Source: Bdellovibrionales bacterium (GTDB lineage Bacteria; Bdellovibrionota; UBA1018; JADZFF01). From it: 32,000 bases of DNA. The notes under the pieces are model-generated. The model ran no database searches. It was not told the DNA's origin and saw nothing but the letters and a program-made list of their open reading frames with translations. The DNA lies in contig JADZFF010000033.1 in assembly GCA_020850015.1 (NCBI GenBank), positions 1-32,000 on the forward strand, written 5' to 3'. Positions 2,266-28,359 of this stretch are shown in pieces; position 1 is the stretch's first letter; each line of letters begins with the position of its first letter. A program made the translations under genes and the position numbers.

Positions 2266-3120
2266 ATGTCGTTCTTTTCAAAGATTCTTACGGCTTTGGG
2301 TCTGGCGTTGGCCTTTGGGATCGCGGCGCAACCCGCGGCGGCCTTGCCCCCGGGCACGGGCTTCCAGATGCAGCCCGACGGCGTGCACGTGCCGATGATT
2401 GAAGTCTCCACCGGCGTGGAGGTGGCCTCCTCTGAAGAAGCGGCCGTTCAAGTGCTTCTGGGCTTCGAGTACCGCGGCGTGGAAGGCGTGAAAGAGGGCA
2501 CCTACTGGGCCCGCGTTTACGTGGAAGGCGGGATGGATGTCATCGACGGCTCCGTGGGTAGCTTCCGCGTGGAGTTCACCCCCTACCGCGCGATCGGCGA
2601 ATCGAATCCGGTGCCGATTTCCTGGGAGACGCGCCTTTTCAATACCGTGATCGCGCACGACGAGCGAACCGGCCAGGATCTCGACGGCACGATCAAGCTC
2701 TTCGGCTTCCGCGGCGGGCTCTTTCTGCCCGCCTCCGATCCGGGCGACTTCGAAGCCATGATCGTCGTGGCGCTCGAGGCCTTGGGCGGCCACATCCGCC
2801 AGTTCGCCGAGCACGAGCTCGAAACTTTCTACGGCGCTTACGTGGCCGGGGCCTCGCTCGAAGCCACCTTCGGTTGGCAGCTCAACGAGGACTTCAAGAT
2901 CACGGGCACCTTCGGCGTGGGCGGCGATCTCTCGATGGGCTCTTCGGGCGGCGACTTCACGGCGCTCGTCGACTCCGAGATGCACCTGAACTTCGTGCTC
3001 AGCTGGCGCAACATGATCGACTTCATCATCGGCGGATCGCTCGAGAACTACGCCGACACGGGCAACGACCGCTCGGTGGGCGTGGCGAAGTTCCTCGCGA
3101 GCCTGCGGTTCCGGTTCTGA
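2266..3120 (+). CDS. exported protein, putative outer-membrane beta-barrel-type protein
   Basis: ATG at 2266 is preceded by GGAGG (2257-2261). The signal-peptide-like N-terminus is MSFFSKILTALGLALAFGIAAQPAAA. The C-terminal region has alternating hydrophobic residues and ends LASLRFRF, a terminal aromatic as in OMP beta-signals. The stop lies 13 nt before the PLD gene at 3134. Confidence 0.6.
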   Translation: MSFFSKILTALGLALAFGIAAQPAAALPPGTGFQMQPDGVHVPMIEVSTGVEVASSEEAAVQVLLGFEYRGVEGVKEGTYWARVYVEGGMDVIDGSVGSFRVEFTPYRAIGESNPVPISWETRLFNTVIAHDERTGQDLDGTIKLFGFRGGLFLPASDPGDFEAMIVVALEALGGHIRQFAEHELETFYGAYVAGASLEATFGWQLNEDFKITGTFGVGGDLSMGSSGGDFTALVDSEMHLNFVLSWRNMIDFIIGGSLENYADTGNDRSVGVAKFLASLRFRF

Positions 3121-3133
3121 GGGGGCGGCTCAG

Positions 3134-4969
3134 ATGATCCCCCTTCGCTCAGCGCTTCTGGTGTCAGTGGTCCTGGCCTCCGCTTTCGCCGGCCAGGCTC
3201 AGGCGGGCGGCCGCAGAGCGCCCCGGATCGATCTCAATGAGCTTGCCCGCTACTATGCGGAACAGTCCGGCGGCCTCGTGCCGCTGGCGCCCGGCGCCCA
3301 TGGCCGCGGCGGGCACCTGCGTTTCACCTGGGACGAGCGCAAGCGGCCGAAGCGCATTCGCACGGTGCAGCCTTTGGACTACCACCTGAACCAGGGCCTG
3401 TTCGGCTTCGACGAGGAGCGGTTCCTCCGCGCCGAGGGCGCGGCCGATCTCGTGGATGCGCATTGGAGCTGGTACTCGCGCAAGGACTTCAACCTCTCCA
3501 CCCAGCATCACGACCAGGACTACTACTACCTCGAAGGCTGGGAGCACCTCTTCCACCCTCCGGTGAAAGAGATGACGCTCCCGAAGGAGCGCTACTTCAA
3601 GGAGTTCACGCCCGAGGTTCCGCACCTGGCGAACTGGGCCGACGGTCACGAGTACTTCAGCCCCGAGTTCCAGAAGAACATCGACCGGCTCACGGGCACG
3701 CAGCTCACCTACGGCAACCGTCTAACGATGCTCCCGAACAGCCAGGCTTACGCGGCTAAGATGGATCTCGTGAAGCGTGCCCGGCGCTCGCTCTACGTCG
3801 GCGTGATGTTCTGGGCTTGCGACGCCACCTCGAGCGCGCTTCGCGACGAGCTCGTGAAGAAGATGCGCGAGGGCGTGGAGGTCCGCCTGGTCACCGAACG
3901 CTTCTATCGTGAGTTCCTGGGCCGCCGCTGCATCGACCGGATCGAGCAGCTGGGCATCCCCGTGCTCGTGATCGGCGACTCCTTCAACTCCGAAACCTCC
4001 ACCTCCGCCTATCACCAGAAGTTCTGGATCCGCGACGGCGAGGAAGTGATCCTGGGCGGCATGAACATCCTGGACTACGAGAACGAGGCCTCGGGCTTCA
4101 ACGGGATGAACCGCGACACCGACGTGCGCGTGGTGGGCCCCTCCGCGAAGGACGCGCAGGCCTCTTTCATGCGCATGTGGAAGCGCTACTCCACGGCGCA
4201 GGCTCAGCGCGACTGGGCCGACGAGCGCCTGCGCGAGACCGAAGCCGAGCAGGCCGCGGAGGCCGCGCGCGGCGTACGCGGCCAAGCGAACTACGCCACC
4301 TGGTTGGGTTCGCCCGAGACGCGGATGAACGGCATCTGCCGCACGAACTTCCAGGGCACCATGGCCCGCGTGGAGCCGATCGCCCCGGTGGTGGAGGAGC
4401 ACCTGCGCGCCGCGCGCAAGCTCACCGTGTTCTCCACTCCCGACATCACCTTCAGCCTGGATGACCCCGCGAACGCCGAGCACCTCGATTCGCGCATCGC
4501 GCGCATCATGCGCCTCCTCACGGAGCGCAACTCGTCCACCGATCCGGTGCTCCGCATGCTCACGAACGGCGAGGCCGGGGGGGCGGGCGAGGTGTCGATC
4601 TGGATGCAGTACCGCACCATGGAGGCTCAGCAACACGGCAGCGCCTTCGCTGAGCAGTTCATGCGCCAGTGGAAGACCGTGGTGAGCCGCCGCGCCGCCG
4701 CCGGGAACCGGAAGCACTCCACCGAGGTGATGCACCAGAACCCGCAGTTCCGCGCCTACACGCACATGAACTACGTGCACGAGAAGGTGTTCCTCTTCGA
4801 CCGGATCGCCTCGTTCATCAGTTCCTGGAACCTCGACCTGAACTCGGCCGACATCAACCACGAGGTCTCCGTGACCTGCCTGGACGAGAGCCTGCGCCAG
4901 CAGCTCGAGCATGAGCTGGCGCTCGATCTGGCGAACGCCGTGCCGATGGTGAGCAGGAACGGGAAATAG
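3134..4969 (+). CDS. exported phospholipase D superfamily protein with two HKD motifs (PLD-1)
   Basis: The signal-like N-terminus is MIPLRSALLVSVVLASAFAGQAQA. HKD1 is HQKFWIRDGEEVILGGMN and HKD2 is HEKVFLFDRIASFISSWN. It is a clear paralogue of the 6077-7975 product. Confidence 0.85.
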   Translation: MIPLRSALLVSVVLASAFAGQAQAGGRRAPRIDLNELARYYAEQSGGLVPLAPGAHGRGGHLRFTWDERKRPKRIRTVQPLDYHLNQGLFGFDEERFLRAEGAADLVDAHWSWYSRKDFNLSTQHHDQDYYYLEGWEHLFHPPVKEMTLPKERYFKEFTPEVPHLANWADGHEYFSPEFQKNIDRLTGTQLTYGNRLTMLPNSQAYAAKMDLVKRARRSLYVGVMFWACDATSSALRDELVKKMREGVEVRLVTERFYREFLGRRCIDRIEQLGIPVLVIGDSFNSETSTSAYHQKFWIRDGEEVILGGMNILDYENEASGFNGMNRDTDVRVVGPSAKDAQASFMRMWKRYSTAQAQRDWADERLRETEAEQAAEAARGVRGQANYATWLGSPETRMNGICRTNFQGTMARVEPIAPVVEEHLRAARKLTVFSTPDITFSLDDPANAEHLDSRIARIMRLLTERNSSTDPVLRMLTNGEAGGAGEVSIWMQYRTMEAQQHGSAFAEQFMRQWKTVVSRRAAAGNRKHSTEVMHQNPQFRAYTHMNYVHEKVFLFDRIASFISSWNLDLNSADINHEVSVTCLDESLRQQLEHELALDLANAVPMVSRNGK

Positions 4970-5007
4970 ATAGACCGGGCTCCCGGACCCTTGGCCCTGG
5001 GCTCGCG

Positions 5008-5030
5008 CACGAGAAAATCTCGTGTTTTTT
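5008..5030 (+). terminator. candidate Rho-independent terminator downstream of PLD-1
   Basis: The stem is cacgag (5008-5013) paired with ctcgtg (5019-5024), with loop aaaat, followed by T6 (5025-5030). It lies about 40 nt after the stop at 4969. The stem is short (6 bp), so confidence is only moderate. Confidence 0.5.
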
Positions 5031-5107
5031 CCTTCGAGCGCGCTCTCGGCGGGATTTTCACCAGAAAACCTCGTGCGGCGCGCGGGTGGCGTTGATAGGG
5101 TCGGGGC

Positions 5108-5872
5108 GTGAGCAAGCAAGCCCCGAGTAAGGCCAGAGGCCGTTTAAGCGCGCGATCCTCCGCGCCCGCGCCGGCGTCTCGGCCCGCGCCCGCCGCTTCC
5201 GGCGCATTTCTGGCCGTCTCCGCCGGTCTGGGCTTCCTCGGCGCGGCGGTGAGCTCCTTTTACGCCGACCCGGCGGGGCATCTGCTGATCTGCAGGCTCG
5301 CGCTCGCCGCGCTCGCGGCCCGCGTGCTGCTCGCCGCGGCGATCCCGGGGCTCCGGCCCCGCCTCGCGAGCTCCGCCTGGCTGCTCGCGGGCGCGGGATT
5401 GGGCACGCTCGTGGCGCACCCCGCGATCTGGAACTGGGTGTTTCTGGCGCCCGCGGTGGTGCTGGCCGGAGTGGCCGCGCCTTTCGTGGCGCGCTCGCCC
5501 AGCGGCCCTGACGGGAACCAACTCCCCTTCGTACCGGAACGCGCGGCCGGGCGGGTGGGGGCCCTGTTCGTGGGCGCGGCGCTTTTGATCGGCAACGCCA
5601 ACCATCTCCTCGACTTTAGCGAAGCACCGCTCGTGCGGGCGGAGTGGCTGGGCGTGGAGCCGGGCGGGTTCGGTGGGCACCTGATTCGGCTCACTCCGCG
5701 CGAACCCGTGGACCGGTTTTCCCCGGTGTGGCGCGCGCGCGGCCTGGGCGCGCTCGCGGAGCTCAGGCCCGGAGCGCCCGTGCTGGTGCGGCAGGGTGCC
5801 GGGCTCTTCGGCGCCGCCTGGCTTCGGGAGCTTCGGCCCGACGCCGGCCGCTCGGCGCCGTCAGGCTCCTGA
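5108..5872 (+). CDS. hypothetical polytopic membrane protein (4-5 hydrophobic segments)
   Basis: GTG-start ORF with strong G/C third-position bias in this frame. It has a basic Ala/Pro-rich N-terminus, then hydrophobic stretches (GAFLAVSAGLGFLGAAVSSFY, LALAALAARVLLAAAIPGL, SAWLLAGAGLGTLVA, WVFLAPAVVLAGVAAPFVA, VGALFVGAALLIG), then a roughly 90-aa soluble tail. I recognised no family. Confidence 0.6.
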   Translation: MSKQAPSKARGRLSARSSAPAPASRPAPAASGAFLAVSAGLGFLGAAVSSFYADPAGHLLICRLALAALAARVLLAAAIPGLRPRLASSAWLLAGAGLGTLVAHPAIWNWVFLAPAVVLAGVAAPFVARSPSGPDGNQLPFVPERAAGRVGALFVGAALLIGNANHLLDFSEAPLVRAEWLGVEPGGFGGHLIRLTPREPVDRFSPVWRARGLGALAELRPGAPVLVRQGAGLFGAAWLRELRPDAGRSAPSGS

Positions 5873-6076
5873 CGATTGCGGGGCTCGCGCGCAAGACCTG
5901 TGAGCGGCGTGAGTTCTCTGTCAGAATTTGCCCCGCACGCCCTTGCCGGCTTGCATCGCTCATCTCTTCTCCCGCACACTTGAGGCAATACATCGGGGGG
6001 ATGAATGGTTCCTTTTCACGGACGGATGGGAACCGGTCGGGCACGGGTGTCCGCACTGGTTGGAAGAAAGTACGCC

Positions 6077-7975
6077 ATGGCTCTGGCGGCCACGATGGCC
6101 GCGCTCCTGGCGAACGCCGGTTCGCCCGCGCTCGCGGCCGGGAAGAAGCGGCCCGAGCCCCCCGCGGGCTCAGGCCCGGTGACGATCATCCCCACGCCCC
6201 CGGGCGACACGCCGGCTCAGTCGGCCGCCCGCCCCGCGGTCACCGCCGCGATGGACGCGATGTGGATGAAGGCCGACCCGCCCAGCCCCATCGAGGGCCC
6301 GGGCGGCGAGGCCTGGACGGAGGAGACGGACCCTCCCATGGAGTGGCTGATCCCCTACTACGACGCCGTGACCGGGGGCCTGATCTCGCCCGCGCCGGCC
6401 GCCGCCCCGGACACGCCCGCGCAGGATTACTTCCAGCTCGACGTGGAGGGCTTCCTGGGTCGCACCCGTCACGCCGACTTCGCCGAGGCCAAACGGGCCT
6501 TCTACGGCAACCTGGATTTCGATACCAAGCGCCAGAAGCACGAGGAGCCGTACTATTACATGGTGCCCTGGAAGCTCCTCTTCCACCCGCCCATCAAGCG
6601 GCTCTCACTCCCGCGCGCCCGCTACCATTCGGGCATGCAGGCCTGGGATCCCGCGGCCCACGAGTCGCCCTACTTCGAGCCGCGCCTCCAGTGGGACATC
6701 GACTTCAAGACCGGCACTGAGATGACCTACGGGAACGAGCTGGAGCTCCGCCCCAACCAGAGCTCCTACCGCGAGCGCCTGCGCATGCTGCGCGAGGCGA
6801 AGAAGTACTTCTTCGGCACCGTGATGTTCTACACCTGCGACACCACGGGCAACGAGTTCCTCGAGGAGCTGATCCGCCGGAAGAAGGAAGGCATCGACGT
6901 GCGCATGATCGTGGAGGGGCTCTACGCCTACACGATCAATCGCAAGTGCATCGACCGCATGATCAAGGGCGGCGTGGACGTGATCCGGGTGGACGACTTC
7001 TGGAAGCCCACCTCCTTCATCTCCGTGCTGCACAACAAGTTCTGGATCCGGGACGGCGAGGAGGCCGTGATCGGCGGGCAGAACTTCCACGATTTCGCCA
7101 ACACCTCCGACGGCTTCCACCTCACGCGCGATACCGACGTGTGGGTCAAGCGCGGCCCCTCGGTGACGGATCTCGAGTACGAGTACCTGCGCCTCTGGAA
7201 GCGCTACGCCAAGAAGCGCAAGAACCAGCCCGCCGAGCCCTACCTTTCGGCCGTGGCCGCGAGGATCGAAAAGGAGCGCCAGACCCGCGTCCGCGGGCGC
7301 CTGAGCTACTCCTACTGGCTCTCTGACCCCGCGAAGCGCATGAACGGCATCTGCCGCGTGATGGTGCAGGATCGCATGGCTTCCCGCCAGGCCATAGCGC
7401 CCCTCCTGATCGACTACATCAACGCGGCGAAGAGCCACGTGTTCATGACCACGCCGAGCGTGAAGTTCAACAAGAAGGACAAGGTGAAGAAGCCCAAGCT
7501 CGAGGACGAGCTTTTCTTCGCCTACCAGCGCGCCGCGAACGAGCGGGGCGTGAAGCTCGATCTCGTCTCCAACGGACTGGCCGGCGGCATGGGCGACATG
7601 CAGAACTTCTTCGAGAAGTTCCTCGACTCGGACAGCCTCAAGAACAAGAAGCTCATCAAGAAGCTGATCCGGAGCCTGGGCGTGTCCATGAGCGAGAACG
7701 GCGCCGAGAAGGACCGCGACCACATGCTCAAGGTGCTGGAGAAGGTGCCGGGCTCGCGAGCCTGGGGCTACTTCCAGTTCCTGCACGCCAAGACCCAGCT
7801 CTTCGACCGCACGCTCGCCGGCGTGACGAGCTTCAACTGGGACGGGCACTCCTCGCGCACGAACCACGAATCCGGGATTTTCTGTCTGGACCGCAAGCTC
7901 GTGAACCAGCTTGAGGAGCAGATGGTCATGGACCTCATCAACTCCGTGCCCATCGTGAGCCGCAACGGGTTTTAG
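6077..7975 (+). CDS. exported phospholipase D superfamily protein with two HKD motifs (PLD-2)
   Basis: HKD1 is HNKFWIRDGEEAVIGGQN and HKD2 is HAKTQLFDRTLAGVTSFN. The preferred start is ATG 6077 (MALAATMAALLANAGSPALAAG, signal-like) with ggaag upstream. In-frame alternatives exist at 6005 and 6026. Confidence 0.85.
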   Translation: MALAATMAALLANAGSPALAAGKKRPEPPAGSGPVTIIPTPPGDTPAQSAARPAVTAAMDAMWMKADPPSPIEGPGGEAWTEETDPPMEWLIPYYDAVTGGLISPAPAAAPDTPAQDYFQLDVEGFLGRTRHADFAEAKRAFYGNLDFDTKRQKHEEPYYYMVPWKLLFHPPIKRLSLPRARYHSGMQAWDPAAHESPYFEPRLQWDIDFKTGTEMTYGNELELRPNQSSYRERLRMLREAKKYFFGTVMFYTCDTTGNEFLEELIRRKKEGIDVRMIVEGLYAYTINRKCIDRMIKGGVDVIRVDDFWKPTSFISVLHNKFWIRDGEEAVIGGQNFHDFANTSDGFHLTRDTDVWVKRGPSVTDLEYEYLRLWKRYAKKRKNQPAEPYLSAVAARIEKERQTRVRGRLSYSYWLSDPAKRMNGICRVMVQDRMASRQAIAPLLIDYINAAKSHVFMTTPSVKFNKKDKVKKPKLEDELFFAYQRAANERGVKLDLVSNGLAGGMGDMQNFFEKFLDSDSLKNKKLIKKLIRSLGVSMSENGAEKDRDHMLKVLEKVPGSRAWGYFQFLHAKTQLFDRTLAGVTSFNWDGHSSRTNHESGIFCLDRKLVNQLEEQMVMDLINSVPIVSRNGF

Positions 7976-8071: not shown

Positions 8072-9121
8072 CTAGAGCAGGCTCGCCTGCACGCCCAGAG
8101 TCGCCGTGTTGAGCACGAGCGAGTTGCCTTGCAGCTCCGACTCGTAACGCGCGTCCGTGAGATCGAGCGTGATCGCCCAGCCCCACCTATTGGGTTTCGA
8201 GAGCAGCTGCACCCCGCCCCCGATCGCGAGCTCGCGATGGGAGAGCGAGATGCCTTCGCGAATGTCGCCGATCGGGGCGTACTTGAGGTAACCGAACCAG
8301 CCCCGCCCCTCCTTGGGAAACTTCGCGGCCGAGAGAAAGAGCTGCGGCCCGGAAAGCAGGTCCACGCCGTACGCGCGGCCCTCGGTGCGCATCGTCCAGA
8401 GGTACCAGCCCGTGAGGAGTTTCCAGGTGGCCCCGGCCCACCTCGCGGGCAGGGTGAACCCGAAGCGGCCGTTGACACCCAGAAAGCGGACGCTGTTGAT
8501 GGTGCTAGGCGAGTGTGTCAGGGACACGACGTTGAAAAAGATGTTGGCGCCGAGGTCGATCTTTCCGGGCAGGAGCGGATACGCGGCCACGAACTTCGGC
8601 GTGAGCGCCACCTCGGAGAGCCGGATGTTCCCGGGATCCTCGCGGTAGGCGAGGTAAGTCCACCCGAGGCCCGCGCTCAGGGTCAGGCGCCGCGCTCCGG
8701 GCTTCCGCTCCTTCTCGGGCGCGTTTTTCCGCCATGCGCCCTCGTGCGAGCGAACGAGCACGACCTCGGTCTGGATCTCGCCAAGGGGGCTCACGGCCAC
8801 GAAGGTCACCTTCGTGATCTCGGAGCGCACGGGCACGACGATGTCGAACTGCCCCGTGCTCATGAGCTCGATGCGCTGCCGAGGAGCCGATAGGAGCCAG
8901 TTTTTCCTCTCGAAACGGCCCTGAAGCCTGATCTTGAGCGGGGCTTCGCCCGGTTTCTCGCCGGGCTCACGGAGGTACGAAAGCCCCTTCGAAATCCAGG
9001 TCAGTCCCTGGATGCGGCTCCGGGTCTCGGGCGGCCGAATCAGCACGGCGTCGGTGGGCTCTTCGGCCGCGCGCGCATCGGCGCAGAAGAGAGCCAGAGC
9101 CGCGAGCAGGAGCGCGCTCAT
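8072..9121 (-). CDS. exported protein with C-terminal beta-barrel-like domain (putative outer-membrane protein)
   Basis: ATG at 9121 gives MSALLLAALALFCADARAAEE, a signal-like N-terminus. This start overlaps the stop of the upstream gene as ATGA (9121-9118). The C-terminal roughly 220 aa show amphipathic strand-like patterning beginning RRLTLSAGLGWTYLAY. The track's longer ORF (to 9568) adds only low-complexity Arg/Ala/Pro sequence. Confidence 0.65.
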   Translation of the reverse strand: MSALLLAALALFCADARAAEEPTDAVLIRPPETRSRIQGLTWISKGLSYLREPGEKPGEAPLKIRLQGRFERKNWLLSAPRQRIELMSTGQFDIVVPVRSEITKVTFVAVSPLGEIQTEVVLVRSHEGAWRKNAPEKERKPGARRLTLSAGLGWTYLAYREDPGNIRLSEVALTPKFVAAYPLLPGKIDLGANIFFNVVSLTHSPSTINSVRFLGVNGRFGFTLPARWAGATWKLLTGWYLWTMRTEGRAYGVDLLSGPQLFLSAAKFPKEGRGWFGYLKYAPIGDIREGISLSHRELAIGGGVQLLSKPNRWGWAITLDLTDARYESELQGNSLVLNTATLGVQASLL

Positions 9122-14400: not shown

Positions 14401-14466
14401 CGAGCGATGATACCGGCGGAGGCCAGGGGGCGTCCAGCCTGGGTTGGTGGTAGTATCTCAGTCCTG

Positions 14467-17211: not shown

Positions 17212-17769
17212 CTAGCCAGAGAAGGCTTCGATCTTGATGCTCTGGATGGTCATCTCGCTCAGGGGCTTGTCGTTGCCGTCGGTCTTCGTGGTCGCGATCT
17301 TGTCGAGCACGTCGAGGCCTTCGAAGACCTGACCGAAGACGGTGTAGCCGTCGGCCGGGCCCCCGTTCGCCGGGTGGTCGAGGAAGTGAGCGCCCTTCTC
17401 CGGATGCACGACGTAAAACTGCGAGCCGATGCTCTTCGGCCGCGCCGTCTTGGCGTAGGAGAGCGCGCCGCGGAGGTGCTTCAGCTCCGGGTGGTACTCA
17501 TCGCCGATCGTGGTGCCGGGGCCGCCCGCGGCGTGGCCGCCGGTGCCGTTGCGGGCCGTGAAGTCGCCGCCCTGGATCATGAAGTCCTTGATCACGCGGT
17601 GGAAGGGCACGTTCACGTACTTCCCCGCGTTCGCGAGGTCGACGAAGTTTTTCACCGCGCCGGGCACGAGCTCACCGAAGAGCCGCGCCTTCATGACGCC
17701 CTGGTTGGTGGTGATGACGGCGATGGGTTCGCCGGCCTTGGGTGCTTGGAGCTGCTGGGGTTTGTTCAT
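17212..17769 (-). CDS. ppiB: cyclophilin-type peptidyl-prolyl cis-trans isomerase (cytoplasmic type)
   Basis: The cyclophilin core FHRVIKDFMIQGGDF and the stretch SQFYVV are present, and the product is about 185 aa. ATG 17769 (MNKPQQLQ...) is preferred over the longer track start. There is no signal peptide. Confidence 0.9.
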   Translation of the reverse strand: MNKPQQLQAPKAGEPIAVITTNQGVMKARLFGELVPGAVKNFVDLANAGKYVNVPFHRVIKDFMIQGGDFTARNGTGGHAAGGPGTTIGDEYHPELKHLRGALSYAKTARPKSIGSQFYVVHPEKGAHFLDHPANGGPADGYTVFGQVFEGLDVLDKIATTKTDGNDKPLSEMTIQSIKIEAFSG

Positions 17770-17863
17770 GCGCGCGAAAGTAGCGCGGGCCGGGAACGGG
17801 CGCAAGGGGGAGCGCGGAGGCCCCCTGTGCTAGGCTTTTTGGCATGGCCTAGGCCGCGATGAA

Positions 17864-20486: not shown

Positions 20487-21989
20487 TCAGCGGTCAATGA
20501 AGAGCGCCGCGAGCGGGAACTTCTTCAGGGCTTGGTCCTTCGCACCGCGTTTGGCGTCCGCGAAGGCTTTGGCGATCATCTGGTTCGCCGTGTTTTGAAC
20601 TTCCTGGGCGGCCTGCTGCGTGGGCTGGCCGTCCGTGAGCCCGATCTGCACGTTCGTGGCGAAGGGCACGAGCGCGCCGGCCCGGCGGTCGAAGACCTCG
20701 ATGGAGGTTTTCAGGTTCTCCATCTTCGCGGTCTGAGCCGTCAGGTTCGTCACGATATCGAAGCTCGTCATGTGCACGCGGATCGGAACCCGCAGGTGCG
20801 TCCAGTACGAGGCCGTGCTGCCCTTGATCGCGTCGCCGCCCAGGTAGGGCGTGAGGCGCCAGGCCGAGTTGGCGGTATTGAGCTTCATGCGGCGTCTGAA
20901 GGGGTGGTAGCCCTCCCAGGTGCCGAAGTTGAAGTTCAGGCGCATGTCCCGAAGCTCGTTCTTGAGCAGGTGCTCGAAGCTCACGAGCATCATCGGGTAG
21001 TTCGTCGACGTGTCGTTGGCCGTGAAGCCGCCGGGCTGGGGCACACCGGCGTGGGTGATCTCGGCCGTGGGCGAGGTCGTGGCGGGCTCCAGGCGCTGAA
21101 GCAGGGGCTGCATGCCCAGGAGCGCCTGCAGGCGGATCGTGCTCGCGCCCGGCTTCACCGTCAGGTTGATCAGGAAGGCCACGGGGTAAACGTAGGGCGG
21201 CACGAGGTGCGGCGTTTCGTCGTAAGCGTTTTGGAGGACGATGGCCGTATTGTGCTGAGCCACGTCGTTCACGCGGTTTCCGAGGTTCCCCTTGAGGCCG
21301 GTGACGATGGGGTAACCCTCTTCGTCGTAGAGCCAGTGCTTCACGCCCCAGTCGCGCACGGGCGTGCGGCGTTTGGTGCTGAAGCCCATGCGGCGCGGGG
21401 AGTAGCGCGAGCCACGTTCCCAGGCGGCCTTCGCGGCCGCGTCGGTGGCGGGCGCCTTGTCCCAGGGCGCGATCAGGAAGGTCAGGTGACGGGGGCCGGC
21501 GTTCGTGGCGAGCGCGGCCTCGATCTTCGGCAGCGCTTCCTTCAGGTGGCCCGCGGCGGTGCGGAGCACGCGCTCGAGCAGGTTCACCGGGGCCGAGGCG
21601 CCGTCGAGGTCCATGCGCATCAGTTCCGAGAAGGCCGGGATGAACTGCTGCGAGAGGATCTCGTCGATCGTCTGCCCGTACACCGCGGCGAGCTGGCCGC
21701 TCTGGGGTTTCACCTGATCGCGCAGCAGGTAGAGGCGCGGATCGGTGGGCGCGGACGCGCCCACGGCCGGCTTCTGCGAAGGCAGAGCGCGGGAGCGGTC
21801 GAGCGCCTCCCAGGCATTGTCATCGACGAACAGGTGAGGTCTGACCGGCGACTGCGTCATCCGGTACCGGAGGACTTCCGCCCGAGCTGAGTGAAGCCCG
21901 GCGAATACCCCCGACAAGACCGCAAAACACCCCAATGCCGCAAGCGGCCGAACGCGGTTGAATAAGGACATAATGCGGCGAGCTATCAT
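20487..21989 (-). CDS. exported hypothetical protein (500 aa), tightly linked upstream partner of PLD-3
   Basis: The N-terminus is MIARRIMSLFNRVRPLAALGCFAVLSGVFAGLHSARA, which is signal-like. There is strong G/C third-position bias through the body. The stop (20489-20487) lies 10 nt before the PLD-3 ATG. I recognised no family motif. Confidence 0.7.
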   Translation of the reverse strand: MIARRIMSLFNRVRPLAALGCFAVLSGVFAGLHSARAEVLRYRMTQSPVRPHLFVDDNAWEALDRSRALPSQKPAVGASAPTDPRLYLLRDQVKPQSGQLAAVYGQTIDEILSQQFIPAFSELMRMDLDGASAPVNLLERVLRTAAGHLKEALPKIEAALATNAGPRHLTFLIAPWDKAPATDAAAKAAWERGSRYSPRRMGFSTKRRTPVRDWGVKHWLYDEEGYPIVTGLKGNLGNRVNDVAQHNTAIVLQNAYDETPHLVPPYVYPVAFLINLTVKPGASTIRLQALLGMQPLLQRLEPATTSPTAEITHAGVPQPGGFTANDTSTNYPMMLVSFEHLLKNELRDMRLNFNFGTWEGYHPFRRRMKLNTANSAWRLTPYLGGDAIKGSTASYWTHLRVPIRVHMTSFDIVTNLTAQTAKMENLKTSIEVFDRRAGALVPFATNVQIGLTDGQPTQQAAQEVQNTANQMIAKAFADAKRGAKDQALKKFPLAALFIDR

Positions 21990-22068: not shown

Positions 22069-23466
22069 ATGGAAATAAGAGATGAACGGGGCATGCGAGC
22101 AGGTCGCGCGGGGGCGATCGCGTGCGCGGGTCTGAGTCTGTTCCTGAGTTTGAGCCTGGCTCCGGCCCAGGCTTTGATGATGGAGCTCCCCCCGAGCCTG
22201 GCCCCCGTGATGCTTTCGGAGACCGTTCCCTTCACGTTCACGCCGAATGCCTACTCCGCCGCCGATTACCGCCTGGAGTGGGTGGGCGAGGCGTTGCCCG
22301 GCGTGACGGTCCGCCTGGGCGAGAAGAGCCTGGAATGGGTGCGCGTGCGCGAGGTCCTGGATCTGCCGCGGGCCACCGCCGTGGTGGAGGTGCGCGACGC
22401 CGAGGGCGCCCAGGTGCTCCACGCGGGATATGTGCAGCCTCTCGCACGCGTATCGGGCGGGACTTGGAGCGCCCATGTCCCCGTGGCCCTGCTCAGTGGT
22501 TCTGACAATCCCATCGAGTTGCGCGTGCGGCGCGGAGGGCGCGAGCTCAAGGGCACGCTCGTTTCGAAGCTCGTGCCGCGGCCGGGAAACGAGACGCAGC
22601 TCCTGTTCGACGCCACCTGCTCCCACCCGCGCGTGCGCGCCGAGACCGTGAGCGGCCTCAGGCCCGACACCTTCGTCTACGTGGGCTGCCGTTTCGTGCA
22701 CACGAAGGGCGATTCGCACCCGCACCCCTCGTTCGAGCTCTACGTCTACTGGGACGGGGCGGGGCGTTCGATCCGGGTGGACGGAGTGCCCACGCCTTCC
22801 TCTTCAGTGGGCGTCTGGGCGCTCAAGCTCGGCCCGAAGCCCGGCTACGTGGATCTCCAATCGGGCGAGCAGAAGATCCGCGTCGCTTATTCGGTTCCGG
22901 AGCGCCTGCGGCGGCTCACCCTGGGGCTGGGCGTCGGGCCCTACGGATACGCGTTCCAGGACAAGGGCGAGTCGCTCGAGACCTTCGCCCCGCTCGCCAC
23001 CTTGTACGGCTCCTATTTCCTCTCGGAGTCCATGCGGGTGACGATGTTCAATGCCACCGCGCTTCACCGGCTCTGGTACACGAACCAGGGCTTCTACCTT
23101 TGGAGCGAGCAGATGCGCGTGTTCGACTCGCGCTTCTCCATGGTGCTGCTCTTCGGTCTGGATGTGCTCGTATTCCGCACCCGAGGCGCGGGAGGCGACG
23201 TGCACTGGCGCATCGGAGGCCCACAGGGTATCGAGTTCGCGTTCCGCGACTTCCCGATCCGGCGGCACGACGTGAGCTTCGGCGCCTTCATCGCGCCCAA
23301 GCTCGTGAGCGAACACTTCTACTACAACGCCTGGGTGCGCTGGGGCCCGCCTGAGTGGTTCGTGGAGTTCAATTACCTCTCGTGGCAGGAAGAGCTCCCG
23401 GACCAGCTCGTCTACTCGCGGTCGATCGGCCTGAGCGTCGGGATGCCGCTCATTCGGCTGCTCTGA
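22069..23466 (+). CDS. exported protein with C-terminal beta-barrel-like domain, paralogous in architecture to the 8072-9121 product
   Basis: The signal-like segment is MRAGRAGAIACAGLSLFLSLSLAPAQA, with ATG candidates at 22069 and 22093. The junction LRRLTLGLGVGPYGYAF resembles ARRLTLSAGLGWTYLAY in the 8072-9121 product. An amphipathic strand-like C-terminal half follows. Confidence 0.65.
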   Translation: MEIRDERGMRAGRAGAIACAGLSLFLSLSLAPAQALMMELPPSLAPVMLSETVPFTFTPNAYSAADYRLEWVGEALPGVTVRLGEKSLEWVRVREVLDLPRATAVVEVRDAEGAQVLHAGYVQPLARVSGGTWSAHVPVALLSGSDNPIELRVRRGGRELKGTLVSKLVPRPGNETQLLFDATCSHPRVRAETVSGLRPDTFVYVGCRFVHTKGDSHPHPSFELYVYWDGAGRSIRVDGVPTPSSSVGVWALKLGPKPGYVDLQSGEQKIRVAYSVPERLRRLTLGLGVGPYGYAFQDKGESLETFAPLATLYGSYFLSESMRVTMFNATALHRLWYTNQGFYLWSEQMRVFDSRFSMVLLFGLDVLVFRTRGAGGDVHWRIGGPQGIEFAFRDFPIRRHDVSFGAFIAPKLVSEHFYYNAWVRWGPPEWFVEFNYLSWQEELPDQLVYSRSIGLSVGMPLIRLL

Positions 23467-23472
23467 CGGGGT

Positions 23473-23922
23473 TCAGTCCGCCGAATAGCCGGTGAAGCCC
23501 GAGCCGTCCTCGGTGACGCCGGTGTAACCGCCGCTTTCGCCTTGGTCTTGGCCCTCGGCGGCCTGGGCGTGGTCCACGCAAACGGGCTGCAGGTCGCGCT
23601 CGTAGCCGCAGTAGCCGTCGCCGGAAGGGGTTACGCCGCAGTAGCCGTAGCTCAGGTCGTCTGATTCAGTATTCACGGCCGCTGGTTCGGGCCGGCGGCT
23701 GCGGTCGCGCCTCGAGGAGCCGCCCAAACGCGAAACGCCGTCGGCCAGAAGGAGCAGACTGAGCAGGAAACCATCGCCCTCGCTGGCGCGGCCGGCGCGC
23801 AGGCGAACGGCCGTCTCGTCGCTCGACTGCTGGGCTTCCGCCGTGGAGGGCAGGGAAAGCGTCAGCATTGAAAGGGCGAGGGGCGCCACTAGAGCCCAGC
23901 GGAGGCGGAGGATTTGATTCAT
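23473..23922 (-). CDS. small exported acidic Gly/Tyr-repeat protein
   Basis: ATG 23922 gives MNQILRLRWALVAPLALSMLTLSLPSTAEA, a signal-like N-terminus. The C-terminus holds two copies of a 15-aa unit (GYCGVTPSGDGYCGY and GYTGVTEDGSGFTGY). The longer track ORF (to 24129) runs into the inverted-repeat arm and has weaker codon bias. Confidence 0.6.
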   Translation of the reverse strand: MNQILRLRWALVAPLALSMLTLSLPSTAEAQQSSDETAVRLRAGRASEGDGFLLSLLLLADGVSRLGGSSRRDRSRRPEPAAVNTESDDLSYGYCGVTPSGDGYCGYERDLQPVCVDHAQAAEGQDQGESGGYTGVTEDGSGFTGYSAD

Positions 23923-24082
23923 CCCGTTAACGATTGCAAAGGCGTGGCCAATCTCGTTCGTCCCTGGGGCGGACGAGGCTGACGTGGCCCGGGCAGAGCT
24001 GTCTATCGGGTGGGCACCTGCTGGAGCGGGCTCGAGTGTCGTGGGTGACACGGCGCCGCCGGGGTATCTGCGCTCCTCCGCG

Positions 24083-24319
24083 CCGACGTAGTCAAATGTC
24101 GCCTTTGAAAGCGACATTCGGGTCTCCATTTCGAACGTCGGAGGGCGTGCCCCGCACGAGATTGAAGTCGGCCTGACGCAATCGTATCGCCGTGAGTTTT
24201 AAAGGCGGAGTCGAGCCTGGCGTTATTGCGCTAAAAGCGTCGCAAAAAGCATGGTAACCGTAGACGTCCTGACCTCGGACCCGAATGTGGCTTTCAAAGG
24301 CGACATTTGACTACGTCGG
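24083..24319. repeat. 42-bp near-perfect inverted repeat pair bracketing a 153-bp segment (inverton-like, MITE-like or long-stem RNA element)
   Basis: The left arm 24083-24124 (ccgacgtagtcaaatgtcgcctttgaaagcgacattcgggtc) is the reverse complement of the right arm 24278-24319 with one mismatch. Each arm also contains its own 8-bp stem hairpin (aatgtcgc...gcgacatt). Confidence 0.85.
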
Positions 24320-24811: not shown

Positions 24812-24952
24812 GAGTCCGAGCCTAGCACAGCCTCGCGGGATGCTTGGACTTTCCCCAGGGATGGGATGATTTGACTCATTTGGTTGCCTGGTGGTAGACG
24901 CATAGCGTCATCTCAAGGGGTGAGGCGACCGAAAGCAAAAAGGGGTTAGTCC

Positions 24953-26944
24953 GTGAAGCACCGTCGGGCATTTTTTTGGACCGCGTTCGCCGCAGCTTTC
25001 ATCGGCTCCGTTCATTCGCAAGAGGCGTTGGCACGCGCCGGCGCCCGGCTTCGGCCCCATGCCTCCGCGCCCGCAGTGGAGCGCTGGATCTCGGGCCCCT
25101 TTCTGCTGCGCCTTCCCGCGCAACTTCGCCGGGCCGTCCAGAACGTGAAGGTCCAGGTGGGCGACTTCCGCGAGAGCGGAAACCCGCGCTGCGCGCGATG
25201 GGAGGAAGGCGGTCGGACCCTCCAGGTGAACGCGGCCTGCGCGGGTGCCGAGGACTTGAGTTGGTTCGCCAGTGCGGCCGGCGCGGAAGGGCAGCCCGCG
25301 CCCACGCGGCTCCAGGGCAGACTGGTGCAGGCCGCCGTGGAGGCCTGGGGGCGCACCGCCCCCCGATTCCGCGATCGGGCGGCGCGTCGGGAGGTCTCCG
25401 ATCAGGATTTCTTCCAGTCCCCCATCACCTTGGGCGTGAACATCGATCAGCATCCGGACGCTGTGTTTCTCGATTTCTGGTACCGCGCCACCTGGGCGGT
25501 GCTCACCGACCCGCAGGTCCATCTGAAGCATCCGGGCCTGACGCGATATCTGATGAACGGTTTCCTGGAGTGGGGCGAGCTTCGCCAGGCCGAGCGCGTG
25601 GATCTCGATGCCCTCGCGGCGCAGGAGGCGGCTGAGTCCGGCACCCGGGGCCGCGTGCGCCACCTTGTCGATCCGGCCGAGGCCCTTTACGCCCGTATGG
25701 ACCTCATCCGCCAGGCCCGCAAGACGATCCACACCGGGTACTTCACCGTCTGGAACAACGACGTCTTCGGCCGCCAGTTCCTGGGGCTCCTTCTCCAGAA
25801 AGCCCGCGCGGGCGTGAAGGTGAAGCTCATCGTCGACGGGCGCGGGTTCCTTCATACCCGCAACGACTGGCTCCAGGAGCTCGTGGAAGCCGGCGCCGAG
25901 GTGAAGGTGTGGAACCCGGTGCTCAACTCGCGCCTCTCCATCCTGGGCTCGCTCGTGGCCTATCACGACAAGATCCTGCTCGTGGACGGCAAGTCCTTCA
26001 TCACCGGCGGCCGCAACATCGGCGATCGCTACTTCCTCCGCCAAGGCGAGAAGGACGGGCGCGTGTTCTGGGACACGGACGTGGCCGTGGAATTCGATCG
26101 TATGCCGATCGCGCTTCTCCAAGCCTTCAACTCGGAGTTCTACGCCGGGGTGGCGAAATCCGTTCCGAAGGAGATGTTCGGCAACTGGCGCTCGCGCGAG
26201 CCCGAGATGATGCGTGCCATCCGCGCGCTCGACGACCGCGTGGCGAACGAGACGCTTTCGCCCGAGACCCTGCGCTGGCACCCCGAGGTGGACCGCATGA
26301 AGAGCCTGGTGGGCAAGCCCGCCTATACGCTCTGGACCTCGGATGAGCAGGTGCCCGTGCGCGTGCTCGATAACTTCACCCGATTCGGCGCTCAGAAGCA
26401 GCTCTCGAACGAGCTCTTCCGGATGATGGACGAGGCCGAGAGCGAGATCCTGATCCAGAACCCCTACCTGGTGCTCACGCCCGAATGCGGCGACCGCCTG
26501 GAGGCCGCGGCCCGCCGGGGCGTGAAGGTGCGCTTCAGCGTGACCTCGCCCACAAGCACGGACAGCTTTCTCACCCAGAGCGTGCTGACCTTCGAGTGGC
26601 AGAAGATCGCGGCGAAGGTGCCGGGTTCGGAGATCCACGCCGCGCTGGGGCCCGAGCAGCTCCACGCGAAGATCTTCGTGTTCGACCGCAAGGTGGCGGT
26701 GGTGGGCAGCTACAACATGGACGCCATGTCGCAGGACCGCAACTCGGAGATCGCGCTCGAGGTGAATTCGCCCGCCTACGCAGGCGAGGTGGCCGCCGAG
26801 ATCGACCGCTTCATCCGCGAGCAGAGCGTGCATTTTGATCCCGTCACGGGCAAGGGGCCCGAGCAGATCCCGAACAGCGACGAGGAGATCGAGCGCCTGG
26901 AGTTCTACTACTCCATCGCGCGTTGGGTGCGTCCGCTGCTATGA
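24953..26944 (+). CDS. exported phospholipase D / cardiolipin-synthase-like protein with two HKD motifs (PLD-4)
   Basis: GTG start is preceded by aagggg. The signal-like N-terminus is MKHRRAFFWTAFAAAFIGSVHSQEA. HKD1 is HDKILLVDGKSFITGGRN and HKD2 is HAKIFVFDRKVAVVGSYN. Confidence 0.85.
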   Translation: MKHRRAFFWTAFAAAFIGSVHSQEALARAGARLRPHASAPAVERWISGPFLLRLPAQLRRAVQNVKVQVGDFRESGNPRCARWEEGGRTLQVNAACAGAEDLSWFASAAGAEGQPAPTRLQGRLVQAAVEAWGRTAPRFRDRAARREVSDQDFFQSPITLGVNIDQHPDAVFLDFWYRATWAVLTDPQVHLKHPGLTRYLMNGFLEWGELRQAERVDLDALAAQEAAESGTRGRVRHLVDPAEALYARMDLIRQARKTIHTGYFTVWNNDVFGRQFLGLLLQKARAGVKVKLIVDGRGFLHTRNDWLQELVEAGAEVKVWNPVLNSRLSILGSLVAYHDKILLVDGKSFITGGRNIGDRYFLRQGEKDGRVFWDTDVAVEFDRMPIALLQAFNSEFYAGVAKSVPKEMFGNWRSREPEMMRAIRALDDRVANETLSPETLRWHPEVDRMKSLVGKPAYTLWTSDEQVPVRVLDNFTRFGAQKQLSNELFRMMDEAESEILIQNPYLVLTPECGDRLEAAARRGVKVRFSVTSPTSTDSFLTQSVLTFEWQKIAAKVPGSEIHAALGPEQLHAKIFVFDRKVAVVGSYNMDAMSQDRNSEIALEVNSPAYAGEVAAEIDRFIREQSVHFDPVTGKGPEQIPNSDEEIERLEFYYSIARWVRPLL

Positions 26945-26951
26945 TGGCGAG

Positions 26952-27773
26952 GTGAACCCCGCCTCCGCTCCCATCGGCGTTTTCGACTCCGGCCTCGGCG
27001 GCCTGACAGTGCTCAAGGCGCTCCTCGACCGTCTTCCGGACGAGCGCTTCGTCTACGTGGGCGACACCGCGCGTCTGCCCTACGGCACGAAGTCGCGCTC
27101 CACGATCCGGCGCTACCTCCAGCAGAACGTGGAGTTCCTGCTCAAGAGAGGGGTGAAGGCGATCGTGGTCGCCTGCAATTCAGCGTCCTCCGCCCTGGAG
27201 CCGGGCGACTCCTGGAGCGTGCCCCTCTACGAGGTCATCGGCCCAGGCTCGCGATCCGCGCTCGCGGTCACGAAGAACCGGAGGGTAGCGGTGCTCGCCA
27301 CGCGCGCGACGGTGGCGGGTGGAGCGTACCCAAGCAAGCTGCAGGAGCTGTCTCCGGGCCTGACGGTATTCCAGGAGGCCTGCCCGCTGCTCGTGCCCAT
27401 CGTGGAAGAGGGCATGGAGGCTGATCCTCTTGCGCGCGAGCTCGTGAGGCGCCACTCCAGCGTGGTCGTGGACCAGGCCGCCGACACGGTGATCCTGGGC
27501 TGCACGCATTACCCAGTGCTCGGGGAGGTTTTCCGCCGCATGCTCGGCGACGCCGTGACGATCGTGGATTCCTCTCGGACGCTCGCGGATGAGCTACAGG
27601 GCGATTTGCGCTCGGGTCGGGTCGCAGCGGCCGCGGACGGCCGGGTTGGGGCGGGCGCGAGCCCCCGGGTGGAGCTGCTGGTCACGGACCTCGGCCCCAG
27701 GGCGGACGAACTTGCCGCTCGTTTTTTGGCGCCCCACGGCGCCGAGCCTGCCCGCCTCGTGGACTTGGGCTAG
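26952..27773 (+). CDS. murI: glutamate racemase
   Basis: Family motifs IGVFDSGLGGLTV, VVACNSASS and ILGCTHYP are present. GTG 26952 gives a typical N-terminus. The only upstream in-frame start (TTG 26835) would overlap PLD-4 by 110 nt. Confidence 0.9.
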   Translation: MNPASAPIGVFDSGLGGLTVLKALLDRLPDERFVYVGDTARLPYGTKSRSTIRRYLQQNVEFLLKRGVKAIVVACNSASSALEPGDSWSVPLYEVIGPGSRSALAVTKNRRVAVLATRATVAGGAYPSKLQELSPGLTVFQEACPLLVPIVEEGMEADPLARELVRRHSSVVVDQAADTVILGCTHYPVLGEVFRRMLGDAVTIVDSSRTLADELQGDLRSGRVAAAADGRVGAGASPRVELLVTDLGPRADELAARFLAPHGAEPARLVDLG

Positions 27774-27795
27774 ACCCGGCCCTATTCTAAAAGGG

Positions 27796-28359
27796 ATGCT
27801 GCAAGGCTGTGTTTTCTTACGCCTGCTCGCGGCCCTGGCGGTGGCGTTCGCTTGCGTGGCGCCCGCGGGTCCGGCCCTCGCCGCCGCGGGCAAGGGTTTC
27901 CTGGGGGTGCAGGGCGGGATCGCCATGCCCACCAATGCCAGCGCGGTCTTCGCCTTCGGTTTGAACGGCCTTTGGCAGAGATCGCCACGCTACGGCATCG
28001 GGGCCTTCCTGCTCATGTACGGCGCGCGCCTGGAAAGCAGCACCGAGGCGGGGCAGGTGATCTCGGATTACTCGGTGTCCCTCTGGGGCGTCGAGGCGAA
28101 CTACTTTTTCGGGGGTGGGCTGCGCGGCGGCGCGAGGCTCGGAATCATGAACTCTTCTGGCGACTACAGCGCGAGCGACGCTTCCTCGGAGATCAACATC
28201 GCGGAGAACCAGGATCCGCTGTTCCTCATGCCGCTCGTGGCCTACGACTACCGCTTCGGGAAGGTCTCGATCGGCGGCGAGATGGGCTACTTCCTGGGCA
28301 TGGGCTCGGGCGCGCCGTCCGGGTTCCTCTTCATGATCGCGCCGAAGTTCTGGTTCTGA
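27796..28359 (+). CDS. small outer-membrane beta-barrel protein (OmpX/OmpA-TM-like, roughly 8 strands)
   Basis: The signal-like N-terminus is MLQGCVFLRLLAALAVAFACVAPAGPALAAA. The sequence then begins GFLGVQGGIAMP and shows alternating strand patterns. It ends APKFWF, with a terminal Phe as in OMP beta-signals. It starts 22 nt after murI. Confidence 0.7.
   Translation: MLQGCVFLRLLAALAVAFACVAPAGPALAAAGKGFLGVQGGIAMPTNASAVFAFGLNGLWQRSPRYGIGAFLLMYGARLESSTEAGQVISDYSVSLWGVEANYFFGGGLRGGARLGIMNSSGDYSASDASSEINIAENQDPLFLMPLVAYDYRFGKVSIGGEMGYFLGMGSGAPSGFLFMIAPKFWF

Follow-up and report, generated by a model that had tools for sequence, protein, structure and literature searches.

A predicted outer-membrane barrel gene paired with an exported phospholipase D-superfamily gene in a Bdellovibrionales genome segment

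Introduction

Why does a single genome segment of a Bdellovibrionota bacterium carry four genes for exported phospholipase D (PLD)-superfamily enzymes, and are these enzymes tied to the genes for outer-membrane (OM)-type beta-barrels that lie close to them? The question is posed by 32,000 nucleotides (nt) of a Bdellovibrionales metagenome-assembled genome (MAG; contig JADZFF010000033.1, positions 1 to 32,000), referred to here as the window, in which genes were picked by third-position GC together with Pfam and NCBIfam matches (window G+C ~66%). A preliminary description of the window had treated the four enzymes (PLD1 to PLD4) as one set of divergent paralogues, each with a barrel-type partner (N1 to N4), and had offered a membrane-attack arsenal or an OM lipid-remodeling system as explanations. 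The analysis presented here points to one module, the gene pair N1-PLD1, which recurs in several phyla, and to three further exported PLDs whose barrel neighbors are probably incidental.

Phospholipid chemistry at the OM was recognized only in 2026, with ClsO, an OM lipoprotein exposed at the surface and a dual-HKD cardiolipin synthase of A. baumannii and other Proteobacteria that consumes mislocalized phosphatidylethanolamine and phosphatidylglycerol (Herrera et al., PNAS 2026, PMC12846801). The barrel and PLD pair described below is a concrete candidate for a partner-assisted OM lipid enzyme. To our knowledge, nothing is known of such OM lipid enzymes outside Proteobacteria. In addition, two families now annotated as "hypothetical" or as generic "PLD/Cls family" gain a genomic context.

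A Predicted Barrel Gene and a PLD Gene Form a Conserved Pair

The pair and the element that follows it occupy the following positions:
2266-3120, + strand: N1, an exported predicted OM beta-barrel (signal peptide, C-terminal RFRF, N1/f343 homology)
3134-4969, + strand: PLD1, a predicted Sec-exported dual-HKD PLD-superfamily enzyme (PLDc_2 E 2.8e-17)
5007-5025, + strand: terminator-like hairpin and T-run directly after PLD1, by pattern match only

N1 ends 13 nt before PLD1 on the same strand, and the hairpin is the probable end of the N1-PLD1 transcript; the number of such hairpins in the region does not exceed that expected from shuffled sequence. Scanning genomes with the alignment of the PLD1 family gave 18 loci in Ignavibacteriota, Bacteroidota, Calditrichota, Myxococcota, Oligoflexia, and Bdellovibrionota. 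In all 18 informative PLD1-type loci, which come from Bacteroidota, Ignavibacteriota, Calditrichota, Bdellovibrionota, and unassigned high-GC contigs, a predicted OM barrel gene lies directly upstream of the PLD gene. In 13 of them the barrel belongs to a family of ~345 amino acids (aa) called f343, in four it is of the N1 type, and in one of the N2 type. The f343 gene is immediately upstream and on the same strand in every one of the 13 distinct loci of the FCB clade (Bacteroidota, Ignavibacteriota, Calditrichota) that have upstream sequence, with f343-PLD gaps of about -43 to -253 nt; overlap or near contact with the start of the PLD gene is common. The N1-type gene holds this position in the window and in loci L005, L040, and L042, and in L001 a long N2-type gene takes it.

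The f343 family is the sole conserved neighbor family, as a Pfam survey of 104 flanking open reading frames (ORFs) from 17 loci found no recurrent theme. For 23 pairs of PLD and f343 clusters the longest contigs are identical in size, and each pair is therefore taken to lie on the same contig. Between FCB loci the barrel is the more conserved of the two proteins, at 50-67% identity versus ~37% for the enzyme. From these comparisons, N1-PLD1 appears to be a copy of a conserved, self-contained two-gene module that spans several phyla, and this conservation strongly supports a dedicated OM partner for PLD1. Barrel adjacency is thus conserved in relatives for PLD1, with no comparative support for the other three PLDs, and the earlier proposal of OM lipid remodeling with dedicated OM partners survives for one module and not for four. 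A literature search found no description of a barrel and PLD gene pair.

Some of these loci carry further genes or defects. In L002 (4000-4953) a further lipoprotein gene, weakly alpha/beta-hydrolase-like (E 1e-4), precedes the f343-PLD pair, and a different ~325-aa lipoprotein family does so in L004 (3899-4876), L010, and L021; such preceding lipoprotein genes are not conserved over the whole locus set. The f343 gene of L014 (6876-7944) and the PLD gene of L017 (7902-9726) each appear to be split into two ORFs, as a frameshift or misassembly of these MAGs would produce.

The N1/f343 Barrel Family

N1 has homologues in L005 (67% identity), L040 (31%, E 2e-21), and L042 (37%, E 3e-41). The L042 protein bridges the two groups, matching N1 at E 3e-41 and the f343 hidden Markov model (HMM) at E 5e-12. 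Direct signals between N1 and f343 are also present (phmmer E 3e-7; hhalign E 2e-4), along with common GGxxxPxS and FxGA motifs, and a profile search returned 75 f343 proteins and two N1-type proteins that had already been found. The f343 family has no Pfam model, no NCBI name, and no PDB sequence match. All 65 full-length members have hydrophobic N-termini. At their C-termini, N1 ends in RFRF, the L042 protein in YYTN, the L040 protein in STW, and f343 proteins in (F/L/I/V)RR.

An AlphaFold2 model of an f343 member is all-beta (pLDDT 82, pTM 0.76), with 14-16 long antiparallel strands after an N-terminal segment of ~75 residues. The listed top 50 PDB matches of this model in Foldseek are all OM barrels at a probability of ~1, and they include Pla/OmpT, OmpF, CymA, OpcA, FapF, OmpG, and autotransporters. 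The model thus points to f343 as an OM-type barrel of a new type, and N1 as a predicted OM barrel is well supported through its homology to f343. Among the same listed top 50 matches there are no PopA-type lipid-trapping OM proteins (PMC12228718), which had been considered for f343, and neither OMPLA/PldA nor PagP. A single barrel family comprising N1, N2, and N3 was likewise considered and rejected: the hhalign and HMM comparisons gave N1 a link to f343 alone and none to N2.

The PLD1 Family and Its Predicted Fold

The PLD1 family comprises 78 full-length relatives of ~600 aa (E<=1e-74), all of them annotated only as "PS/PGP/cardiolipin synthase family". Both sets of catalytic residues, H294/K296/D301/N311 and H549/K551/D556/N566, are invariant across the 78 members, as are many residues of the N-terminal domain. 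By scanning and inspection, ~63 of the 68 full-length members examined for it have a lipobox-like cysteine, and the cysteine-free signal is limited to the PLD1 subclade (P0001-P0004). The PLD1-type enzyme is accordingly predicted to be a lipoprotein in Bacteroidota, Ignavibacteriota, and Calditrichota, and to have an ordinary signal peptide in the window.

The AlphaFold2 model of PLD1 has a bilobed PLD fold (pLDDT 90, pTM 0.89). Foldseek matched it at a probability of 1.0 to human PLD2, PssA, F13, and Streptomyces PLD, and more broadly the model matches bilobed PLDs in general (human PLD1/2, PssA, vaccinia F13, 7e0m, Streptomyces PLD, and the solved PLD3/4 enzymes). The identity of PLD1 to these structures is 10-15%, so that it has no close solved relative.

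Proposed Function of the Pair

It is proposed that a PLD1-type enzyme would act at the OM of the cell that produces it, as a phospholipid head-group transferase (transphosphatidylase) or as a hydrolase. The barrel would be its obligatory partner, either docking or threading the enzyme at the OM or giving it access to OM phospholipids. For N1-PLD1, remodeling of the cell's own envelope lipids with a barrel partner is the reading that we favor, at slightly better than an even chance; OM localization, lipid substrate, physical interaction, and physiological role are what we infer in it from sequence and gene order.

Several observations weigh against this reading. The TM-scores of the f343 model to solved barrels are only 0.2-0.38, the f343 proteins end in RR with no aromatic beta-signal residue, and N1 is without the conserved ~60-aa N-terminal segment of f343. 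The PLD1 family is only marginally similar to Cls enzymes (E 1e-6 to 1e-8). By sequence, its profile scores best in the PDB against the Nuc endonuclease and a virion nicking-joining enzyme (E 1e-5 to 1e-4); with nucleases and nicking enzymes closest to it, the family may have a non-lipid substrate. Since the PLDs of the window are without a lipid anchor, they may be soluble periplasmic or secreted proteins, and a role against prey membranes is possible, as the phylum is rich in predators. The ClsO analogy is also conceptual, because the ClsO papers mention no barrel partner.

The missing lipid anchors would also fit a digestive or predatory secretome, in which four secreted phospholipases degrade prey or environmental membranes and the N1/f343 barrel serves as a PLD secretion pore of a two-partner or FapF-like kind. 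This reading can point to the Bdellovibrionota origin of the MAG, to genes in the region for an exported 5'-nucleotidase, a Cys-rich exported HEIAH protein, and a 1051-aa DUF2961/GH43-like protein, and to the FapF, CymA, and autotransporter barrels among the Foldseek matches of f343. However, most PLD1-family members are FCB lipoproteins from MAGs whose lifestyle is assumed to be non-predatory, and a folded bilobed enzyme of 600 aa cannot cross a barrel of 14-16 strands unless it is unfolded. Moreover, the window has no secretion-system genes and related loci share none, and only 7 nt separate PLD4 from the murI gene downstream of it on the same strand. A secretome is thus considered unlikely.

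The nuclease-like profile matches bear on a different alternative, that enzymes of the PLD1 family, like Nuc and the PLD3/PLD4 enzymes, cut phosphodiesters, whether nucleic acids or others, to scavenge phosphorus or nucleotides, with the barrel importing the products. The window encodes an exported 5'-nucleotidase, and scattered neighbors elsewhere are of a related kind: a gene with a 5'-nucleotidase C-terminal domain in L042, a weak nucleoside-hydrolase match in L002, and a nucleobase permease in L001. Nevertheless, the survey of 104 neighboring ORFs in 17 loci gave no recurrent nucleotide or phosphate theme, and a nucleotide-scavenging context was rejected on this ground. The fold matches the lipid-acting PLD, PssA, and F13 equally well, and a lipoprotein anchor together with an OM barrel partner better fits a membrane substrate. 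We regard a non-lipid phosphodiesterase as improbable, below even the secretome.

A broader form of the envelope-remodeling reading can also be put forward, in which the N1/f343 barrel and the PLD make up a dedicated lipoprotein-barrel machine for OM phospholipid homeostasis that is widespread in Bacteroidota, Ignavibacteriota, Calditrichota, and Bdellovibrionota. Through the barrel, the PLD would be threaded to the surface or supplied with outer-leaflet phospholipids, which it would convert, for example to cardiolipin or phosphatidic acid. This extension is tentative, and we would sooner expect it to fail than to hold. If it is true, ClsO/Mla would have a counterpart outside Proteobacteria, made up of two protein families of which no member has been described.

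Comparison With Known Systems

Exported OM PLD/Cls enzymes are of a kind already known from ClsO (2026). What appears to be new is the co-encoded dedicated barrel of an undescribed family, the separate PLD family, marked by an N-terminal domain of its own, and the spread over FCB phyla and Bdellovibrionota. As with ClsO, PLD1 is a predicted Sec-exported dual-HKD PLD enzyme outside the inner membrane, and most FCB members of its family are also predicted lipoproteins; PLD4 is 28-29% identical to ClsC-like lipoproteins (E ~1e-30). In contrast to ClsO, the four PLDs of the window are without a lipobox, and PLD1, PLD2, and PLD3 are only marginally similar to ClsC. The ClsO papers (PMC12846801 and its commentary) name no barrel partner and no FCB or Bdellovibrionota phyla, and the two ClsO-type loci that were inspected are without a barrel partner. 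ClsO is described only in Proteobacteria, whereas the N1/f343-PLD module occurs in FCB phyla and Bdellovibrionota.

The E. coli enzymes ClsA, ClsB, and ClsC share the two HKD motifs and the catalytic fold with the window PLDs, which differ from them in falling below the equivalog cut-offs, in lacking ClsA-type transmembrane helices, and in carrying export signals. The gene partners differ as well: ClsC is encoded with ymdB and ClsB with ybhP/ybhN, unlike the window PLDs.

Pairs of an OM barrel and a lipoprotein that act on or sense OM lipids include MlaA-OmpC/F, LptE-LptD, and RcsF-OmpA/C/F. The likeness of MlaA-OmpC, LptE-LptD, and RcsF-OmpA to N1-PLD1 is an architectural analogy only, with no sequence relationship, and their partner barrels are general porins or LptD rather than a dedicated co-transcribed barrel. 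OMPLA/PldA and PagP are OM barrels that deal with mislocalized phospholipids, in which the barrel itself is the enzyme. They offer a functional analogy to the whole module, where catalysis would instead sit in a separate PLD.

Tle5 effectors have no Sec signal, are encoded with vgrG and other type VI secretion system (T6SS) genes, and have cognate Tli5 immunity genes. Like the window proteins, Tle5/PldA/PldB are dual-HKD PLD-superfamily proteins that address bacterial envelope phospholipids. The window PLDs differ in their Sec-type signals, and no vgrG, T6SS, or Tli5 genes were found with them. As the preliminary description had also noted, there are no secretion genes to be seen: the main window ORFs contain no T6SS or VgrG Pfam domains. 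Tle5/T6SS effectors were rejected as candidates, since all four PLDs are signal-bearing and Pfam domains of vgrG, hcp, PAAR, and Tli5 are missing from the main window ORFs.

Four Exported PLDs of Three Lineages

The remaining PLD genes and the genes beside them are as follows:
5108-5872, + strand: g5108, a multi-pass membrane protein (three transmembrane-like segments beyond an N-terminal hydrophobic stretch)
6005-7975, + strand: PLD2, a predicted exported dual-HKD paralogue of PLD1 (PLDc_2 E 1.9e-23)
8072-9121, - strand: N2, exported, with a C-terminal OM protein (OMP)-like domain of ~200 aa, from a large family without a Pfam model
9118-10218, - strand: g9118, exported, like the N-terminal domain of long N2-family proteins
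17864-20476, - strand: PLD3, an exported orphan dual-HKD protein of 870 aa (PLDc_2 E 5.2e-15)
20487-21989, - strand: g20487, an exported 500-aa protein with a signal peptide
22069-23466, + strand: N3, an exported 465-aa protein, possibly a very distant relative of the long-type N2 family
24953-26944, + strand: PLD4, a predicted exported dual-HKD enzyme (PLDc_2 E 5.1e-35)
26952-27773, + strand: murI-like glutamate racemase (Asp_Glu_race E 6e-18; IGVFDSGLGG; GTG start at 26952)
27796-28359, + strand: N4, a small exported protein ending in FWF (signal peptide, amphipathic beta windows)

The descriptive anatomy of the window is held with high confidence. The preliminary description was right that four exported dual-HKD PLDs are present. 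Each polypeptide matches Pfam PLDc_2 and carries two HxKxxxxD motifs with the octamers that had been quoted (HQKFWIRD and HEKVFLFD in PLD1, HNKFWIRD and HAKTQLFD in PLD2, HSKVMVID and HMKTITVD in PLD3, HDKILLVD and HAKIFVFD in PLD4), and eight such motifs in ~2,800 residues are far above chance. The G(G/S)xN pattern that had been attached to every motif does not hold for the second motif of PLD1, where SSWN stands in its place. In PLD3 both motifs have unusually long D-to-GSxN spacers, of 13 and 18 residues where PLD1 has 6. The coordinates that had been given for PLD3, N2, N4, and the fatty-acid hydroxylase gene are exactly those of the NCBI calls, and the start of PLD2 moves from 6077 to 6005.

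Export was judged by a heuristic reading of the N-termini. All four show a positive n-region, a hydrophobic core of 8-15 residues, and an AxA-like cleavage site, predicted at AQA|GG, ALA|AG, SQA|GS, and VHS|QE or ALA|RA for PLD1 to PLD4 in turn. No cysteine occurs in the first 55 residues of any of the four, and thus there is no lipobox. The same kind of scan gave no internal transmembrane-like segment in PLD1, PLD2, or PLD4, and in PLD3 a single marginal hydrophobic window at residues 377-395, within the first catalytic lobe. On these features, all four are predicted Sec-type exported PLD-superfamily enzymes.

The statement that this is no housekeeping cls arrangement also holds. None of the four reaches the curated NCBIfam cut-offs for ClsA/ClsB (TIGR04265, 290 bits; PRK12452, 787 bits; PRK11263, 281 bits), as PLD4 scores 105 bits, PLD1 and PLD2 at most 60, and PLD3 at most 30. 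The heuristic scan found a single signal-like segment in each in place of the ClsA-type pair of N-terminal transmembrane helices, and PLD1, PLD2, and PLD3 have family-specific N-terminal extensions of ~190-350 aa. In BLASTp comparisons with ClsC and ClsC-like lipoprotein sequences, PLD1, PLD2, and PLD3 gave E values of at least 1e-7. Nucleases of the DISARM DrmC kind and other defense PLDs were considered and rejected: NCBIfam scores are at most 54 bits versus a cut-off of 133, PADLOC matches are weak, single-lobe, and generic, no defense genes are nearby, and the proteins are predicted to be exported.

The idea of a single set of divergent paralogues, or a lineage expansion, does not hold up against the tree and the BLAST comparisons. 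PLD1 and PLD2 share 34-35% identity (E 1e-111), whereas the relationship of PLD4 to both is only distant and PLD3 has no significant BLAST match to the other three. In a neighbor-joining tree PLD1 groups with its L005 (L005a) and L001 relatives beside the FCB clade, and PLD2 groups with its own L005 relative (L005b) and with homologues from Oligoflexia, Bdellovibrionia, and Myxococcota. Given the separate clades and this identity, PLD1 and PLD2 are therefore old paralogues rather than a recent tandem duplication. Judged by sequence, the four PLDs are three separate lineages, not one expansion or a four-fold system.

Whether the four could nevertheless work as one membrane-attack or lipid-remodeling system, each with its own OM barrel, depends on how their neighborhoods are read. 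Four PLD genes within 24 kb are a non-random cluster, and there is indeed an exported OMP-like gene within two genes of each, as had been described. An N2-type barrel fills the partner position in L001, so that barrel types may be interchangeable. Yet the probability that all four would show such adjacency is ~0.13 by a hypergeometric estimate (4 OMP-like genes among ~22), and the adjacency is thus not remarkable in itself. A conserved barrel partner is found for N1-PLD1 only, and the three PLD lineages are without a detectable recent common origin. The relatives of PLD2 have no barrel neighbor, N2 is convergent with PLD2, the other 12 N2-family loci, in unrelated contexts, are all without a PLD gene, and N3 is divergent from PLD3, whose immediate upstream gene is g20487. 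The claim of four partner barrels fails on these points. The membrane-attack arsenal fares no better in view of the missing T6SS, VgrG, and immunity genes, the Sec signals, the FCB lipoproteins, and the apparent PLD4-murI operon. One system of four enzymes with four barrels is in our view improbable.

PLD2 and the N2 Family

PLD2 is 69% identical to L005b. Its start is most likely 6005 and not 6077, because the L005 orthologue shares the longer N-terminus (MVP...GR...ARV), which also provides the charged n-region. A homologue of g5108, which itself has no Pfam match, lies between the two PLD genes of L005 (E 1e-24). No barrel gene is found upstream of any PLD2-clade relative examined; the upstream genes are of the g5108 type in the window and L005, encode a glycoside hydrolase of family GH6 in L016, and encode a Cys-rich soluble protein in L018. 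PLD2 would then be an old paralogue that lost, or never had, a barrel.

N2 and PLD2 are convergent. A 4-nt overlap with g9118 makes N2 look co-transcribed with that gene and not with PLD2. A full HMMER search gave 829 cluster representatives for the N2 family (E<=1e-3), in architectures of ~345 aa and 450-560 aa with a common C-terminal domain of ~200 aa. Of 150 members, 72 end in F, 44 in L, and 11 in W (127/150 together), and the family has no Pfam or PDB match. From such features of its family, N2 is likely a barrel. The motifs GWYxWGM, YGxxxLxGPQxF, YxKxAPI, and NRELAxGG recur in the family, tandem N2-family genes are seen in L031 and L033, and the family is also present in L023. The g9118 protein aligns with the long N2-type profile (hhalign probability 97.6%, E 3e-12) and has a C-terminal TPR_2 match at E 1e-4, below the Pfam cut-off. 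The long N2 architecture therefore appears to be split into g9118 and N2 in the window.

To place the family in context, 12 other metagenomic loci were found by the family motif, on short contigs of 1-12 kb. All 12 carry genes of the N2 family, some of them in tandem, and none contains a PLD gene. The loci lie in unrelated contexts, and two are beside genes that resemble sucAB-lpd (2-oxoglutarate dehydrogenase-like), with N-termini judged by eye. An N2-PLD association as a general rule was rejected on these loci, within the reach of contigs of that size. The proximity of N2/g9118 to PLD2, and of N3 to PLD3, is probably coincidental.

PLD3, g20487, and N3

PLD3 has an N-terminal extension of ~350 aa, with its HKD motifs at residues 495 and 738, and Pfam recognizes only the first lobe. 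It is "hypothetical" at NCBI, forms a singleton cluster, and has no PDB, plasmid, or PADLOC matches. Next to PLD3, on its strand and 10 nt upstream, lies g20487, a gene absent from the preliminary description. PLD3 appears to be co-transcribed with it as its operon partner; g20487 has no Pfam, NCBIfam, PDB, or PADLOC match.

N3 is divergent from this pair and has no Pfam match. It aligns with the long N2-family profile at an hhalign probability of 87.5% (E 4e-6), across the N-terminal domain and just the first part of the barrel region, and its HMM E value is 4e-4 among 14 window proteins and 0.027 in a larger ORF set. Together with an intermediate score in an amphipathic-strand count, which is crude and separates barrels from soluble proteins only weakly, this distant link makes a weak case for N3 as a barrel.

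PLD4, murI, and N4

PLD4 has an N-terminal extension of ~230 aa. Its best E. coli match is ClsC (25% over 424 aa, E 3e-19), and among annotated proteins it is closest to proteobacterial "phospholipase D family" members of 513-517 aa (28-29%, E 1e-30 to 1e-32). These members carry lipoboxes (TGC, TAC), are 41% identical to ClsC, and are taken as ClsO-type because of the lipoprotein signal, two HKD motifs, and likeness to ClsC (criteria of PMC12846801). By sequence comparison, PLD4 is placed as a distant relative of the ClsC/ClsO clade. The gaps from PLD4 to murI and from murI to N4 are 7 and 22 nt on the same strand, and the three genes appear to form an operon in which a PLD is mixed with a cell-wall housekeeping gene. 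PLD4 would be a candidate periplasmic or OM cardiolipin-synthase-like enzyme; its apparent co-transcription with murI and its ClsC/ClsO affinity fit a role in envelope maintenance. N4 has a signal peptide, an FWF C-terminus, and, by the crude count, a high density of amphipathic beta windows, with no Pfam or NCBIfam match; it is plausibly an 8-stranded OM barrel.

Other Genes of the Window

No tRNA or Rfam features were found in the window, and the remaining genes are as follows:
45-824, + strand: ZIP transporter
802-2055, - strand: sterol-desaturase/fatty-acid-hydroxylase family membrane enzyme (FA_hydroxylase E 1.7e-29), divergent from N1-PLD1
10646-11812, + strand: mnmA
11963-13573, + strand: exported 5'-nucleotidase
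13525-14400, - strand: GNAT acetyltransferase (third-position GC 0.88)
about 14431-15282, + strand: membrane protein
15745-17112, - strand: g15745, exported, with a HEIAH motif
17212-17805, - strand: cyclophilin, without a signal peptide
23473-24129, - strand: g23473
28664-31819, - strand: DUF2961/GH43-like protein of 1051 aa

The fatty-acid hydroxylase-type gene that had been noticed at the edge is confirmed by its Pfam match, and NCBI names it "sterol desaturase family protein". In L005 an ORF at 2-1072 on the - strand has a near-identical N-terminus, compared by eye and not by alignment, at the position of the sterol-desaturase/fatty-acid-hydroxylase gene. This synteny means little, because the two genomes are too close; the gene could be a lipid-modifying companion of N1-PLD1.

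The first half of a + strand ORF at 13738-15282 is probably an artifact, as the GNAT gene covers 13525-14400 on the - strand, and only the C-terminal ~280 aa of this ORF resemble a multi-pass membrane protein. The 28664-31819 ORF has a DUF2961 domain and, toward its C-terminus, a weakly GH43-like region; its start is uncertain since its first ~100 residues are low-complexity and Pro/Ala-rich. The g15745 protein (455 aa), without a Pfam match, is Cys-rich with a signal-like N-terminus and, given its HEIAH motif of the HExxH type, may be a secreted zinc protease.

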